Made by a program: the position numbers and the translations under genes
Part shown: in pieces, positions 18,376 through 28,919 of the stretch
Layout: each line of letters begins with the position of its first letter
How positions within the stretch are numbered: position 1 is the stretch's first letter
Assembly: GCA_963790475.1 (NCBI GenBank)
Contig: CAWBOS010000012.1
Coordinates: 736,001 to 800,000, forward strand
Direction: 5' to 3'
Length of the DNA: 64,000 nucleotides
Source: an uncultured delta proteobacterium
GTDB taxonomy: Bacteria > Desulfobacterota > RBG-13-43-22
The notes under the pieces: generated by a model
What the model was told of the DNA's origin: nothing
Database searches by the model: none
The model's input: only the letters and a program-made list of their open reading frames with translations

Positions 18376-18606
18376 TCAGTCTCCTGTTCGGGTCAAGGCC
18401 AGGGCTTCGCGCAGAATTTTGAGACTTTCCATGGCCGCTTCTTCATCGATTTTATGTAAGGCAAAACCGGCATGGACGATGACATAATCCCCCACTTTGG
18501 CCTCATCCAACAGAAGGAGACTGACCTTCCTGATGACCCCATCGACATCGATGATGCCGAGTCCCTCTTTAATTTCCACAATCTTTGACGGTATGGCCAG
18601 ACACAT
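18376..18606 (-). CDS. hypC: Hydrogenase maturation chaperone HypC
   Basis: MCLAIP N-terminus and VGDYVIVHAGFA. Confidence 0.95.
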   Translation of the reverse strand: MCLAIPSKIVEIKEGLGIIDVDGVIRKVSLLLLDEAKVGDYVIVHAGFALHKIDEEAAMESLKILREALALTRTGD

Positions 18607-19099
18607 AATCAGTACTCCTAAGGTGGTAAGGCGCTCCCAGGCGGGTAATTTCCGTCAGGACCCTTTCGATCATCGAATCCACTTTTGTCTGGATTAGAGG
18701 CGTAAGTTCGGTACTGAGCGTTTCAATGTCCTGGGGCTCCACGCCTAAAATGACCGTTTGAGGAACTTTATCAAGGGCCTGGCACAATGTCAAGGCTTCC
18801 AGAAAGTCCACTTGATGGAGGGAGTTTTTAGCCCTGATTCGAGCCGGTATCTCCTCCCCTTCCAATCGAATAAATGTACCGGGGCGGCATTTATTTCTGA
18901 CGATATCGATGACGATGAGATAATCCGCCTCGGATAGGAACCCTAGTAGATTCATTCCCAGCACACCCCCATCGATAATTGAGACGTTGTCTGAAAAGGC
19001 ATAGAGGTCCTGTATTCTTTCAATAACCCGCACCCCGAATCCCTCATCCCTGAAAAGGATATTACCGATGCCTAAGATCACGATCAAGGGTGAATCCAT
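18569..19099 (-). CDS. HyaD/HybD-family hydrogenase maturation protease
   Basis: ILGIGNILFRDEGFG, IDGG and SLHQ motifs. Start set at ATG 19099 (RBS AAGGA) rather than 19204. Confidence 0.9.
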   Translation of the reverse strand: MDSPLIVILGIGNILFRDEGFGVRVIERIQDLYAFSDNVSIIDGGVLGMNLLGFLSEADYLIVIDIVRNKCRPGTFIRLEGEEIPARIRAKNSLHQVDFLEALTLCQALDKVPQTVILGVEPQDIETLSTELTPLIQTKVDSMIERVLTEITRLGAPYHLRSTDYVSGHTVKDCGN

Positions 19100-19120
19100 T
19101 AGTCCTTGCTTTGAATGAAA

Positions 19121-19146
19121 GGAGCGGGTTTCAAACCCGCCCCTAC
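19121..19146 (-). repeat. GTAG-type REP palindrome
   Basis: Minus strand reads GTAGGGGCGGGTTTGAAACCCGCTCC. Confidence 0.6.
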
Positions 19147-19200
19147 AAAACCCCATCAGATTTGATGAATATGCATTATTGACAAACCCGTAAGAAGTCG

Positions 19201-19476
19201 TCACCCCTGATAGCTCGCTCCAGGAAAGTTCTTTCGAAGATAATGGACCAGTTTGTCTGCTTCTGGAGGTTGGGTAAAAGTCTTATGCTCGCACTGTTTA
19301 GAAAAAATGCTCACGCTCCAACTCTTCTTGTGGACATCCAGTCCCACGTAAATCGATTGACCCGAAAAATCCAATTTGTTAATCTGTACCACGGCAAGTC
19401 TCCTTTCGGTTTGTTTTTTTACCCTAAAAAAAGTATATCCGAAAGCTTCGAGACTTGCCTTTCTTTTTCAATCATA
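19201..19476 (-). mobile_element. IS110-family remnant: left end plus the first 63 codons of the transposase
   Basis: IYVGLDVHKKSWSV is the first-Asp motif of DEDD transposases. An upstream inverted repeat GGCAAGTCTC/GAGACTTGCC covers the RBS. Truncated. Confidence 0.75.
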
Positions 19477-19616: not shown

Positions 19617-21257
19617 TTAAAGTGCCTTGACCTTGTATACCTGGTTGGAGTCGGGGTCAATGACATGAATCCCGCAGGCGATGCAAGGGTCAAAGGAATG
19701 GACGGTCCGAAGTATCTCCAGGGGCTGTTTTGGATCGGCCACCGGCGTTCCGATCAGGGCCTCTTCCACCGGTCCCATCTTGCCCTTTTCATCCCTCGGG
19801 CAGAGGTTCCAGGTGGAGGGAACCACCATCTGGTAGTTTTCGATCTTCTTATCCTTGATCTTGATCCAGTGACCCAAGGCACCCCTGGCCACATCATTCA
19901 AACCGCAACCGATGGCCGTGCCCTCGGGCATCTCCCAGTGCTCATAGGTCTTGATATCCCCCCCTTTGATATGGCCGATCAGGTCGTTGATCCAGCCTTC
20001 CATGGCATTCCCGATAACCACGGTCTCCAGGCCCCTGGCCGCTGTTCGGCCCAGGGTGGAAAAAAGGGCCTCCACCGGAACTCCCAGCTTTTTCAAGGTG
20101 TCATCCACGAGGGCATTGATCCCTTTATTCCCCCTGGCATAAGCGACCAGCACTCTGGCCAGAGGTCCCACTTCACAGGGTTCTCCGTCATACCGCGGGG
20201 ATTTGAACCACGAATATTTGCCCTCCGGTCTATAATCCCCGTGCTGGGGTCTGGTTTCCCCTTCCCAGGGGTGCTTTGGGGATCCTGCTTCGTACCAGGA
20301 GTGGGCTACGTGTTCGGTCACCTTTGCTTGATCCGCCATCTTTATACCCTTCAGGTCCCTTTTCATGATCACCCCCCGGGGCAGGAAAAGGTCTTCGGGT
20401 TCCTTGTCTCCCAGAGGTAAATCACCCCAGGCCAGAAAATTGGTAGTCCCGCCGATGGCCCCCCAATCTTTATAAAAGGAAGCGACGGCCAGGAGATCGG
20501 GGATATAGACGTCTTTGATAAATTCCTGGGTTTCCTTCCAAACGTAAAAGAACTCGGTGATACGTTCAGGATTCAGGTCGGCCACGCAGGTAATACCGCC
20601 CACGACCAGAGATTGGAGATGGGGGTTCTTTCCGCCGAATATGGCGTGCATCCTGGCTGCCTTGGCCTGGAGGCGAAGGGCTTCGATATAATGGGCCGCA
20701 GCCATCAGGTTGGCCTCGGGGGGAAGTTTATAGGCCGGATGCCCCCAGTAGGCATTGTTAAAGGGGCCGAGTTGACCGCTGTCGACAAAGGTTTGGAGTC
20801 GTTGCTGCACGTTCTTGAAATAGGCCGTACCGCCGGGTGCGTTGGAGACGTTATCCGAAAGGACGGCGGTTTTGACCGGGTCTGCTTTCAAGGCGCTGAC
20901 GATGTCCACCCAATCCAAGGCATGGAGATGATAGAAATGGACCAGATGATCCTGCTGGAACTGGGCCCCGTGCAGAAGATTCCTCAGGATGCGTGCATTG
21001 TCCGGAATCCTGACTTTTACCGCATTTTCAACTGCCCTCACCGAGGACAGAGCATGGGTGTAAGTTCAAACCCCGCAGGCGCGCTGTGTAAAGTGATGGG
21101 CATCCCGGGGATCCCGGCCCTGCAAAATAATTTCGATACCCCTGAACATGGTGCCTGAACTCCAGGCATTAACCACCTTGCCCCCAGCCACCTCCACCTC
21201 GATCTTGAGGTGGCCTTCTATCCTGGTAATCGGATCAATCGTTATTTTCGTACCCAT
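19617..21257 (-). CDS. Periplasmic group 1 [NiFe]-hydrogenase large subunit, 546 aa, with in-frame TGA at codon 64 (candidate selenocysteine)
   Basis: ORFs 21066..21257 and 19617..21041 share one frame. Read-through gives DPITRIEGH...TQRACGV(TGA)TYTHALSS...HSFDPCIACGIH plus a cleavable tail. Confidence 0.9.
21032..21050 (-). promoter_or_regulatory. Candidate bacterial SECIS hairpin
   Basis: mRNA CUGUCCUC-GGU-GAGGGCAG forms an 8 bp stem (one G-U pair) with a G-first apical loop. The stem begins 15 nt after the UGA. Confidence 0.7.
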
Positions 21258-21323: not shown

Positions 21324-22268
21324 CTAACTCTTTATATTCTCTCTGTAAAAGGGCGTCATCTCATCCCAAAAATTGGGTTCGCTGCAGCCGATGCAGGGAT
21401 GTCCGGCCTGAATAGGCCAACTGGTGCCTCCATGGAACTTGACCGTCGGGCAATTATTATAAGTTTCAGGACCTTTACAGCCCATCTTGTAGAGGCAATA
21501 ACCCATGCGGGCCTCGATTGAACCGAATTCAAGAACAAAATTATTGGCTTCAAAATAGGATCTTCGCGGGCACTGGTCATGAATCGTGTTGCCGTAGGCA
21601 AAGAGAGGACGCCCCAGGTCGTCCAGGGCCGGAAGTTTGCCCAGAAGGAGATAATTGACCACGGTCCCTACCAGATTGACCGGGTTGGGGGGACAACCCG
21701 AGATATTGACCGGCTTTATCCCCAGGGCCTCTCCGACACTTTTGTACCCGCCGGGGTTGGGCTTGGCTGCCTGAATGCCTCCGAAACAGGCACAGGTACC
21801 CATGCAGACCACGGCCAGGGCCTGGGGGCAGACTTCCCGGGCGATTTCCAGGAAGGGCCGGCCGGCAATTTTTCCGTAAGCCCCGTCATACTTGGTGGCG
21901 ATGGCGCCATCAACAATGCAAATGAATTGCCCTTTGTATTTTTTAACTGCGGCCTTCAGATTTTCTTCAGCCTGATGCCCTGCTGCGGCCATGATCGTTT
22001 CGTGGTATTCTATGTCGAGAATATCCAGAACCAGGTCGGCAACCCAGGGATACATGGATCTCAAGAGGGCCTCCGTACAGCCGGTACACACCCCGAAGGA
22101 GAGCCAGATCACCGGAGGCCGCTGTTTGGGCGCGGCGAAGACCTCGGCCACTTTCGGGACGAACGATGACGAGAGCCCCAGGGTGGCGGTAAGAAGGGTA
22201 CAGAACTTCATGAAGTCTCTCCTCGAGACTCCTTTTTGCTCCAGTCGTTTATAGAAATCCTTTTCCAT
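21324..22268 (-). CDS. Periplasmic [NiFe]-hydrogenase small subunit (Tat signal)
   Basis: SRRDFMKFC Tat motif, CTGC, GCPPNP, HDQC..CLYKMGC and WPIQAGHPC (Pro indicates a [3Fe-4S] medial cluster). Start at ATG 22268 after GGAGG. Confidence 0.95.
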   Translation of the reverse strand: MEKDFYKRLEQKGVSRRDFMKFCTLLTATLGLSSSFVPKVAEVFAAPKQRPPVIWLSFGVCTGCTEALLRSMYPWVADLVLDILDIEYHETIMAAAGHQAEENLKAAVKKYKGQFICIVDGAIATKYDGAYGKIAGRPFLEIAREVCPQALAVVCMGTCACFGGIQAAKPNPGGYKSVGEALGIKPVNISGCPPNPVNLVGTVVNYLLLGKLPALDDLGRPLFAYGNTIHDQCPRRSYFEANNFVLEFGSIEARMGYCLYKMGCKGPETYNNCPTVKFHGGTSWPIQAGHPCIGCSEPNFWDEMTPFYRENIKS

Positions 22269-22287
22269 TGTCACCTCCTGAAAACAA

Positions 22288-23100
22288 TTATTCTTTTGGT
22301 CCAATTGGTATCATTCCTCTCTTTTCAATGATCTCCTTCCCTTTGTCCGACAGGGCGAAGTCAATGAAGGCCTTGGCCGCTCCCGCCGGTTTCCCCTTGG
22401 TGACAAAGGAAAATTCTTGAAAATAAGGATACCCTTTGTCCTTCGGGGAAAGACCATTGACTTTGACCGTCTTGACTCCTCCTGCTTTTCCTATGGCCCC
22501 CTGGGTAACGAAAGAAATGGCCGCGGGAAAACGTTTGACTACTTCCAAGGCCATGGTGGAAAGATTAGTCATGATGTCATAATGGGTCTCTTTTCGTTTC
22601 ATGGCCAGATGTCCGAAATTCTCGTAGGCGGCGGTGTTTTTCCCGGGAACGACCAGAACAATCATCTCCTCCGGCCGGCCTAATTGTTTCCAGTTGGTGA
22701 TTTTTTTGCCGAAGATATTCCGGAGTTGTTCTTCAGATAGATTAGCCAGCCGATTCCTGGCGTTGACAATAATCGCCAAAGGGTCTTTGCCGAAGAGCGT
22801 CTCCACAAATCCGCCCTCCTTAAGGGGGTATGTCCCCCCCCGGGCTATACTGGAGATGTCGCTCTGTCCGGACATGAGACGGTTCACCGCGACGGAAGAA
22901 GAGGACACATACAACTCCACATCAATCCCCGTGGCTTTGGTAAAAAGCTCAAGCCTTTCCTTTTCAAAGGCTTCGTAAACCTGGGAAGAGCAACTGTACC
23001 TCAATTTTTCTTGGGCCTGGACGGCCGGAGTCAGGAGCATGATCCAAGAAACCAGGATGGAGGCCACAACCGTTACAACCAATGCCAATCTTCTTATCAT
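22288..23100 (-). CDS. Periplasmic binding protein (PstS/PBP2-like fold), first gene of the hydrogenase operon
   Basis: Signal peptide; DPLAIIVN, QLRNIFGKKITNWKQLG and AKAFIDFALS resemble the phosphate-binding protein family. No ABC permease nearby. Confidence 0.8.
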   Translation of the reverse strand: MIRRLALVVTVVASILVSWIMLLTPAVQAQEKLRYSCSSQVYEAFEKERLELFTKATGIDVELYVSSSSVAVNRLMSGQSDISSIARGGTYPLKEGGFVETLFGKDPLAIIVNARNRLANLSEEQLRNIFGKKITNWKQLGRPEEMIVLVVPGKNTAAYENFGHLAMKRKETHYDIMTNLSTMALEVVKRFPAAISFVTQGAIGKAGGVKTVKVNGLSPKDKGYPYFQEFSFVTKGKPAGAAKAFIDFALSDKGKEIIEKRGMIPIGPKE

Positions 23101-27499: not shown

Positions 27500-28919
27500 T
27501 TAACGTTCAACGTGATCGATCAGAGTACCATCCTCCTCCCTTAGCTCGATAATCATCGGCATGGCCCCAATGGCATGGGTGGAGCAGGAAAAACAGGGAT
27601 CATAGGCCCGGATGGCCGCTTCCACCCGGTTCAACATGCCCTCGGTCAATTTCTTCCCATCCACAAAGGACTTGGCCACCATTTCCACGGATTTATTGAT
27701 GGCCCAATTGTTATGCCCGGTAGCGACAATCAGATTGACCTTGGTCAACATCCCGTTTTTGTCGGTTTTATAATGATGGAACAGGGTCCCCCGAGGGGCC
27801 TCTAAACATCCCACCCCTTCACCGGTCAGACTATTCGATTCCGTCACCAGATTCGTGGAAAGGACCTCCGGGTCCATGAGGATTTCTTTGGCTCGTTCTA
27901 TGGCATAAAGGTCTTCAATCAGGCGGGCGTAGTGATACCATAAGGTGCCCTCTACCGGTTTACCTCCCCCCAGGGCCTTAAAATTTCCGAATTCCTCATT
28001 GGCCAGAGGGGTATTGATTTTTTCAGCCACATTCAGCCGGCCCAAAGGTCCGACCCGGTAGGTGCCCTCAGGATAGCCCATCTTGCGGTAATAAGGGAAT
28101 TTCAGATAGGACCAATCTTCCACATGCTCGGCAATAACCTCCAGATAATTTTGGGGATCGAATTCCTCCAGCGTTTTCCCGGTCTTGTCCGTTAAACGAA
28201 TCCGGCCGTCGTACAACTGCAATCCCCCCTGTTCGTCTACCATCCCCATGTAGCCTGACGAAAAAACCGCATATTTATCCACCAAATCCCGGTTGGCCTC
28301 AAACCAACCTTTAGCCACGGTTAAGGCGAGTCTTAATCGTCTCCATCACCTCATCAATCCGGCTCAAAAGATCGTCACAATCTTCGGCGGAAAGAGGGGC
28401 ATTAACCCCCCCGGGAATGGAATGAATGGGATGAACCCGTTTCCCGCCCAGTTTTCGGATAATTTCCTGACCGAAAGCCCTGGACTGGACCGCCTTCAAG
28501 GCCAATTCCGGATTGGCCTGGATGACCCCCACCACATTTCGAATGGCCGGGTCGGCATCGAACCCCAGCAGCATATCCGGACCGGCCAACTCAAAGAAAT
28601 GCATGGAGTGGGATTGAATAAACTGCCCCATATGCATCAATTCCCGAAGGAGCTGGGCCGTTCGGGGAGGGGTCACCCCGACGATCCGGTCACAGGCCTT
28701 GGCCGAGGCCAGATGATGGCTGACCGGACAAATTCCACATATCCGTGGCGTTATTTGAAGCATTTCAAAAAAGGGACGCCCTTCGGTGAATTTCTCAAAC
28801 CCCCGAAATTCATTGACATGCATAAAGGCGTTTTCCACTTTCCCTTTGGCGCCCATATTAATGGTTACTTTGGCGTGACCCTCTATCCTGGTTACGGGTT
28901 CTATCGTGATTTTCTGCAT
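27500..28919 (-). CDS. hoxH: Cytoplasmic group 3 [NiFe]-hydrogenase large subunit, frameshift near 28330
   Basis: EPVTRIEGH and RICGICPVSH (L1) in 28311..28919; EAPRG and AYDPCFSCSTH (L2) in 27500..28318. Confidence 0.9.

Follow-up and report, generated by a model that had tools for sequence, protein, structure and literature searches.

A UGA codon at the predicted Ni-Fe bridging cysteine position of a Group 1 [NiFe]-hydrogenase, a probable site of selenocysteine insertion

Introduction

A [NiFe]-hydrogenase large-subunit gene of an uncultured delta proteobacterium (assembly GCA_963790475.1) carries an in-frame UGA codon at the place of a metal-binding cysteine, which raises the question of whether this codon is read as selenocysteine (Sec), as cysteine or as a stop. 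The gene lies in a stretch of 64,000 nucleotides (nt) of contig CAWBOS010000012.1 (positions 736,001 to 800,000 of the forward strand; C12 below), the whole of which is referred to as the window; coordinates are those of the window unless a contig is named. An earlier interpretation made without database searches, the sequence-only reading, had proposed a naturally encoded active site with a bridging selenium and called the gene a candidate new type of selenium hydrogenase. Comparison with related genes and genomes leads us to conclude that UGA codon 64 very probably specifies Sec at the Ni-Fe bridging position of a group 1b large subunit, the label 'group 1b' being our own assignment for this HynAB-like enzyme.

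The experimental knowledge of selenium in hydrogenases comes entirely from Sec as a terminal Ni ligand in the C-terminal ligand motif L2. A natural selenium bridging Ni and Fe, if true, would test the chalcogen effect at the other kind of position, a question so far addressed only by an engineered E. coli variant.

Results

The UGA codon replaces the second cysteine of the L1 motif

The large-subunit gene occupies 19617..21257 on the minus strand and comprises 546 codons including UGA-64. The translated frame begins with ATG at 21257, preceded by a Shine-Dalgarno-like AAGGAG, and ends with TAA at 19617-19619; its sole internal stop is the TGA at 21068-21066 (feature 21066..21068, minus strand). 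PF00374 (Ni-dependent hydrogenase) covers the read-through product over model positions 1-508 of 508 with an E-value of 1.8e-221. The UGA stands in the context QRACGV-UGA-TYTHAL and takes the place of the second cysteine (C61-G-V-U64) of the N-terminal ligand motif L1, R-A-C-G-V-U-T-Y-T-H, encoded by codons 59-68 (21054..21083, minus strand). This motif aligns without gaps with residues 79-88 (RTCGVCTYTH) of 1H2A_L, which places codon 64 at Cys84 of the Desulfovibrio vulgaris Miyazaki F enzyme. We take Cys84 to be, together with Cys549, a ligand bridging Ni and Fe, and to correspond to Cys68 in the D. gigas numbering. In E. coli Hyd-1 the equivalent second N-terminal cysteine is C79 (Evans et al. 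2021, PMC8020662).

The L2 motif, DPCIACGIH (19665..19691, minus strand), is all-cysteine, with no Sec at the classical [NiFeSe] position. The metal ligands therefore are three cysteines and the residue encoded by UGA at the second L1 position, instead of the four cysteines (RxCGxC plus DPCxxC) that define the family, and C61-G-V-U64 has the form named CXXU by Takano et al. 2026, with Sec at the second place of the N-terminal CXXC. In these respects the sequence-only reading, which had described a single frame split only by this TGA on the second L1 cysteine and an intact DPCIAC motif, was accurate. The solved mature chains stop at the residue aligned with His531, and the 15 residues that follow it here (19620..19664, minus strand) form a C-terminal extension that the maturation protease, to judge from the family, presumably removes.

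Both sides of the UGA are under constraint. In comparisons with five congeners, the ratio of nonsynonymous to synonymous substitution rates (dN/dS) lies between 0.02 and 0.10 upstream of the UGA (codons 1-63) and between 0.04 and 0.09 downstream of it (codons 65-546), indicating that the two halves are translated in one frame and kept under purifying selection. In two DNA runs, each from a different study, and in two metatranscriptome runs, independent contigs span the codon itself (21066-21068), with no difference among the matches listed. No other Group 1 large subunit was found in the genome, so that the gene at 19617-21257 is the only one.

A SECIS-type hairpin follows the codon

Downstream of the UGA, a hairpin of the selenocysteine insertion sequence (SECIS) type was located at 21032..21050 on the minus strand. 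After a spacer of 15 nt (21065-21051), its 5' arm CUGUCCUC (21050-21043) and 3' arm GAGGGCAG (21039-21032) form a stem of 8 base pairs (bp) closed by an apical GGU loop (21042-21040) that begins 23 nt past the UGA. RNAfold recovers this stem, and the spacing, arms and loop agree with what the sequence-only reading had described.

Each of the 136 distinct Sec-type segments collected from related genes has a predicted fold of -6 kcal/mol or lower between nt 12 and nt 41 past the codon, and in 106 of them the loop starts 23 nt after the UGA. A G at loop position 1 or 2 is present in 128 of the 136 Sec-type segments versus 10 of 49 Cys-type segments, whose loop positions are scattered; such a loop G belongs to the bacterial SECIS consensus (Takano et al. 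2026, PMC13582414).

In clade A, to which the window gene belongs, codons +6 to +11 read CTG TCC TCG GTG AGG GCA in 52-54 of the 54 distinct carriers, which share 72-100% protein identity; unlike the hairpin codons, the flanking four-fold and six-fold degenerate codons use 4-6 synonyms. Cys-type relatives encode the same amino acids with other synonyms, and their stem is broken, as in L080 at 84% identity. Clade B has a different hairpin, with a 6-bp stem and a 5-nt loop, at the same distance from the UGA. Across its 36 distinct sequences, 95.8% of the cells in the alignment of stem positions are paired, and two-sided changes occur in three of the six pairs (AU/UA/GC, GC/CG and CG/UA). When the 3' partner was slid by 1-3 nt as a control, pairing fell to 26-62% with at most one two-sided pair. 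From these alignments, the hairpin is held by selection at the RNA level and has the features of a bacterial SECIS. The sequence-only reading had proposed, as a test, to compare homologues with TGA or Cys at this codon for a hairpin covarying in the TGA carriers, and the frozen codons of clade A, the compensatory pairs of clade B and the broken stems of the Cys-type genes answer that test in favour of Sec.

TGA at codon 64 is widespread

Within the genus, 9 of 14 genomes, among them the one studied here, have TGA at this codon; the orthologues are 89-96% identical, and one genome holds two copies. One congener orthologue (L058, G004:C20) has decayed by many stops and frame breaks, yet has kept the TGA at codon 64; another (L025, G013:C89) has a second TGA at the codon of the invariant Trp171. 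Across the phylum, at least 17 of 401 evenly sampled genomes carry TGA at codon 64, counted among the best 150 matches, and in one more, the eighteenth, TGAs lie at other codons of the gene. The order- and class-level scans covered the same 21 genomes as the family-level scan.

A degenerate DNA pattern, which demanded TGA at the second L1 cysteine, the following Thr and an R...E/D context, was then run against one genome per prokaryote species. Among the matches listed, the TGA was confirmed in 117 of 120 loci, and the other three were chance hits. With these requirements UXXC forms and other subgroups cannot be found by the pattern, and the counts (at least 120 loci) are lower bounds and not frequencies. 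According to the record names among the matches listed, the carriers belong to Thermodesulfobacteriota/Desulfobacterota, Chloroflexota, Nitrospirota, Methylomirabilota-like bacteria, Spirochaetes and Nitrospinaceae.

The carriers fall into three operon types. Clade A has the order small subunit, large subunit and protease, without a membrane subunit; in clade B the large-subunit gene is followed by one for cytochrome b; clade C has the small subunit, a Fer4 protein, an NrfD-like protein and the large subunit in that order, a HybOABC-like arrangement that we take to be that of E. coli Hyd-2. A small subunit is adjacent in 78 of 127 Sec-type loci, with an RRxFxK motif in 61 of these 78; adjacency was scored only where the locus extends far enough, and the misses include all of clade C, where two genes intervene. 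In 40 of the 136 distinct Sec-type segments, from clades A and B, both L1 cysteine codons are TGA (UXXU), and no stop or Sec was present in L2 among the L1-Sec sequences examined.

In public protein collections the Sec forms appear as N-terminally truncated products of 474-475 residues without the L1 ligands. As a result, surveys of hydrogenases and selenoproteomes that work on called genes miss or misread them. Judged by the sequences assembled here, the N-terminal-Sec class of Group 1 is larger and more varied than the accessible literature states.

Sec and Cys forms are interleaved among close relatives

To the clade A sequences we added 113 full-length Cys-type database proteins at 75-84% identity. 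In the resulting FastTree phylogeny of 173 sequences, which has many weak nodes, Sec and Cys forms are interleaved, and parsimony requires at least 20 Sec/Cys changes. The eight-member Sec subclade of the window gene has as its sister a Cys subclade at 84% identity. Such natural pairs, occurring in the best-understood structural family (Desulfovibrio-type), would permit a clean comparison of Sec and Cys.

In a first tree, from which rows with more than two stops had been left out, the Sec clades were monophyletic. This arrangement was rejected, since the interleaving appeared once the 113 Cys-type database proteins were added; the monophyly was an artefact of taking Sec forms from the all-species scan and Cys forms from the phylum sample only. 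One locus, L167, stands in the wrong place in both trees, its 'full-length' row having been taken from another, unrelated hydrogenase at the locus.

The parsimony count carries no direction of change. Repeated loss of Sec seems likelier than repeated gain, because a gain needs a working hairpin. Given how common the interchange is among close relatives, Sec is probably not essential but of benefit under certain conditions, of which selenium supply and exposure to oxidants are examples.

The genome encodes the Sec machinery

The genome contains selA, selB and selD together with a tRNA-Sec gene (selC), the machinery that the sequence-only reading had proposed to look for. The tRNA-Sec scores 74.3 bits against a cut-off of 47 and has a UCA anticodon, an 8-bp acceptor stem and a G discriminator, of which the last two are marks of tRNA-Sec rather than of a Cys acceptor. 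ARAGORN assigns it as SeC(tca) and reports no second UCA tRNA among the 50 tRNAs of the genome. Nine weaker matches to the Rfam tRNA-Sec model are ordinary Ser, Leu, Trp, Gly or Tyr tRNAs.

The selD gene (G000:C10:1969676-1970587, plus strand) has one in-frame TGA of its own, which is common among Sec-using bacteria. An intact selA is present only on C20, an alternative contig of 3.2 kilobases (kb) that is 99.1% identical to the corresponding region of the main contig C13. The small contigs C2, C3, C5, C7-C9, C14, C16-C18 and C20 represent alternative versions of parts of the large contigs, with which they share 94-99.8% identity. SelA is present in all 17 phylum genomes that carry the TGA.

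The enzyme resembles standard periplasmic hydrogenases

The gene directly upstream (21324..22304, minus strand) encodes a hydrogenase small subunit with PF01058 and PF14720 domains and the twin-arginine signal SRRDFMKF; its listed TTG start may lie too far upstream. Downstream are a HycI/HynD-like hydrogenase maturation endopeptidase (18569..19204, minus strand; PF01750, E 4.9e-32) and a HypC/HupF-family chaperone (18376..18606, minus strand; PF01455, E 6.1e-28). These Pfam matches bear out the earlier statement that small subunit, protease and hypC are intact. No cytochrome b or HybA/HybB gene was found among the operon genes tested, the neighbours being the protease, HypC and unrelated genes.

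Both subunits rank closest to standard periplasmic enzymes of known structure. The top solved chain for the large subunit is 1H2A_L (E 1.1e-217; standard periplasmic enzymes 1e-217 to 1e-197), whereas the large chains of classical [NiFeSe] enzymes in the PDB match only partially and much more weakly, at about 1e-100. For the small subunit, the top chain is 1H2A_S (E 2.4e-113; standard enzymes 1e-113 to 1e-95), compared with 1e-52 to 1e-59 for [NiFeSe] small subunits. The large subunit scores 591.7 bits against NCBIfam NF033181, slightly below the cut-off of 600, and 431.7 bits against the HysA model NF045518, far from the cut-off of 780, which places it outside HysA. The small subunit presumably has the Pro-type medial-cluster motif, which fits a hand alignment to the D. 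gigas numbering. On this evidence from structure-linked matches and family models, the enzyme belongs to the standard periplasmic enzymes of group 1b, from which it departs at one ligand, and is not HysAB, in agreement with the sequence-only reading.

The likeness to the standard periplasmic enzymes of Desulfovibrio (D. vulgaris Miyazaki F, 1H2A; D. gigas, 1FRV/2FRV; D. fructosovorans, 1FRF) extends over the full length of both subunits and includes the twin-arginine signal, the all-Cys L2 and the C-terminal extension; the operon, with protease and HypC downstream and no cytochrome b among the tested genes, is counted as a further likeness. The window enzyme differs from them in that the second L1 cysteine is encoded by UGA followed by a SECIS-type hairpin. 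The classical HysAB enzymes (Desulfomicrobium baculatum, 1CC1; D. vulgaris Hildenborough, 2WPN) belong to the same superfamily, PF00374, and contain Sec, but there Sec is the first residue of L2 (DPUxxC) and a terminal Ni ligand, where the window gene has DPCIAC.

Between the large subunit and the protease gene lies an ORF (open reading frame) of 63 codons (19201-19392, minus strand), which occupies an operon gap that, at about 410 nt, is unusually long. Neither Pfam nor NCBIfam gave a match for this ORF, and of all loci compared only those of this genome have it.

Discussion

Relation to known selenium-containing hydrogenases

N-terminal Sec in hydrogenases is already in print. Takano et al. 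2026 (PMC13582414) described 47 Group 4 sequences with CXXU, UXXC or UXXU, and in the accessible text of that paper UXXU is called previously unrecognised and is reported for Group 4 only. According to the same paper, an N-terminal CXXU had been reported in a review by Baltazar et al. 2011 for two sequences of Group 1 and one of Group 3, with the prediction that it bridges the two metals. The two Group 1 sequences share with the window gene the motif type and the predicted bridging role of Sec; by the account of later papers they number only two. The Group 4 variants have the same N-terminal CXXU, UXXC and UXXU motifs and belong to membrane-bound energy-converting complexes, whereas the window enzyme is of the periplasmic Group 1 uptake type.

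At the equivalent bridging position, also in a Group 1 enzyme, Sec has been introduced by engineering: E. coli Hyd-1 C79U retained 13% of the native activity, the highest value among four Sec variants, and its apparent KM for H2 was lowered (Evans et al. 2021, PMC8020662). That variant is man-made by UAG-programmed insertion in an O2-tolerant membrane-bound enzyme, whereas the window gene is natural and would depend on a SECIS. The accessible portion of the same paper refers to natural replacements of bridging cysteines as 'purported examples'. A 2026 review of prokaryotic selenoproteomes, as far as its text is accessible, gives only UxxC for hydrogenase large subunits, and Sec in L1 of Group 1 is not mentioned in PMC10779653 or PMC9961374. 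Nor was a report of UXXU in Group 1 found in the literature on CXXU and hydrogenase. We know of no characterised N-terminal-Sec hydrogenase of Group 1; to our knowledge the kind is in print from sequence alone.

Because the CXXU kind had already been published on such evidence, the window gene is another member of it and not a new type. Of the natural bridging-selenium site proposed by the sequence-only reading, the conserved recoding site at the second L1 cysteine with its SECIS-type hairpin stands, while the claim of a candidate new type gives way to the two Group 1 CXXU sequences attributed to Baltazar et al. 2011 by PMC13582414. What our sequence comparisons appear to add to the published record is the scale across several phyla, three Group 1 architectures, UXXU in Group 1 and about 20 Sec/Cys switches.

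Alternative readings of codon 64

The UGA could simply terminate translation, leaving a pseudogene, or a 63-residue peptide and a 474-residue product restarting at GTG 21041. Gene callers treat it in this way (474-475-residue proteins starting VRAVEN make up 7 of the best 120 matches, and P0008 is another), and the decayed copy in congener G004 and the second TGA at a Trp codon in G013 would fit it. However, the low dN/dS of 0.02-0.10 extends over the codons upstream of the UGA, the TGA is kept at one codon in 117 of 120 loci among the matches listed from several phyla, and the hairpin downstream is under RNA-level selection; the 474-residue product would also lack both L1 metal ligands, in a genome where no other large subunit of Group 1 was found and where the small subunit, protease and HypC are intact. 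We therefore give termination a very small chance. The chance that the TGA is a TGC or TGT misread in sequencing or assembly is close to negligible: indel-type frame breaks do occur elsewhere in the assembly (selA on C13, a Group 3-like large subunit on C12), but those mistakes are indels and not substitutions, the same TGA is present in more than 100 independent assemblies, and the contigs of four public runs span the codon without a difference among the matches listed.

The sequence-only reading had itself raised the alternative that UGA is recoded as Cys by a Sec-like tRNA. In this case a UCA tRNA of the tRNA-ReC / selC* type, charged by CysRS, would insert cysteine, and the enzyme would have ordinary [NiFe] chemistry. 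Such tRNAs exist, and UGA in these motifs could then be Cys (Takano et al. 2026, PMC13582414); a chemically silent recoding would also fit the frequent Sec/Cys interchange. The genome, on the other hand, has a complete selA/selB/selD set and one UCA tRNA among 50, which is shaped like tRNA-Sec down to its 8-bp acceptor stem and G discriminator, with the nine other Rfam matches being ordinary tRNAs, and we regard Cys recoding as improbable.

Against Sec at codon 64 as the preferred reading, and against a benefit from it, several points have to be set. A UCA tRNA that accepts Cys but is of an unusual kind could go undetected by ARAGORN as well as by the Rfam model. The fold of the single sequence is unexceptional (z = -1.34 for a 66-nt stretch, with 22 of 200 shuffles folding as well), and an Rfam scan of the hairpin region gave no family match, only a chance snoRNA at E 4.2, where Rfam may hold no suitable bacterial SECIS model; it is the cross-genome comparison, with TGA at the same codon and frozen synonymous sites, that lifts the hairpin above chance. 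The selA copy of the main contig C13 is split by frame breaks into four pieces, and the assembly is rated as 9.68% contaminated, with strain-variant contigs; both the 'contamination' and the coexistence of a broken selA on C13 with an intact one on C20 are explained by the small contigs being alternative versions of large-contig stretches. SelA is present in 371 of the 401 phylum genomes, so that its co-occurrence with the carriers is not discriminating. The approximately 20 switches among 173 close relatives suggest that Sec and Cys are nearly interchangeable. Hyd-1 C79U had an activity below native and was nearly inactive at 10% O2 (PMC8020662), and in view of these data no clear advantage of selenium at the bridging site is apparent. 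No protein-level evidence of selenium is known for this class.

A possible role for Sec in the L1 motif

If codon 64 is read as Sec, which we consider very probable, the hairpin that begins 15 nt past the UGA would recruit SelB with Sec-tRNA(Sec), the standard bacterial mechanism, and Sec would be inserted at the second L1 position (RxCGxU). In the folded enzyme it would replace the bridging cysteine (Cys84 in Miyazaki numbering), giving an active site in which one selenolate and one thiolate bridge the metals and two further thiolates are terminal ligands. We infer both the actual incorporation of Sec and its bridging of the metals.

When the Miyazaki enzyme is oxidised, Ni is displaced at a fraction of the sites, where Cys81 and Cys84 are joined by a disulfide (PMC10498676). 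A CXXU or UXXU pair may form a selenenyl-sulfide or a diselenide in place of this disulfide. Quicker reduction is expected for selenenyl-sulfides and diselenides than for disulfides. By tuning the redox behaviour of the L1 pair in this way, Sec could speed up reactivation, and it may then serve reactivation rather than turnover, a role that would fit a condition-dependent benefit in view of the frequent Sec/Cys switching. The C79U data, which also count against our interpretation, give no such benefit, in an enzyme and an assay that differ from the window case. Whether the Group 1 N-terminal-Sec enzymes are a large overlooked class, spread over several phyla with at least three architectures, UXXU forms and many Cys switches, in which L1 acts as a redox pair and selenium allows fast reductive repair, unlike terminal Sec, seems to us evenly balanced.

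Other hydrogenase genes in the genome and at related loci

At several loci with a Group 1 L1-Sec gene (L141, L167 and L211), a second, Cys-type large subunit of another group (RICGIC...) lies within 8 kb. In the genome studied here, a Group 4-like large subunit (L2 DPCFSC) is encoded outside the window at about 845100-846460 of C12 (plus strand), with TGA at both L1 cysteine codons (RI-U-GI-U-GYIH). It appears to be of the UXXU type of Takano et al. 2026, in which case N-terminal Sec would occur in two hydrogenase groups of this genome. A Group 3-like large subunit (PRICGICPVSH) at about 27575-28913 of the window (minus strand; C12:763575-764913) is split into two frames on the main contig. 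An intact frame of 476 residues is present on the alternative contig C5, and the split is probably an indel error or a strain variant.

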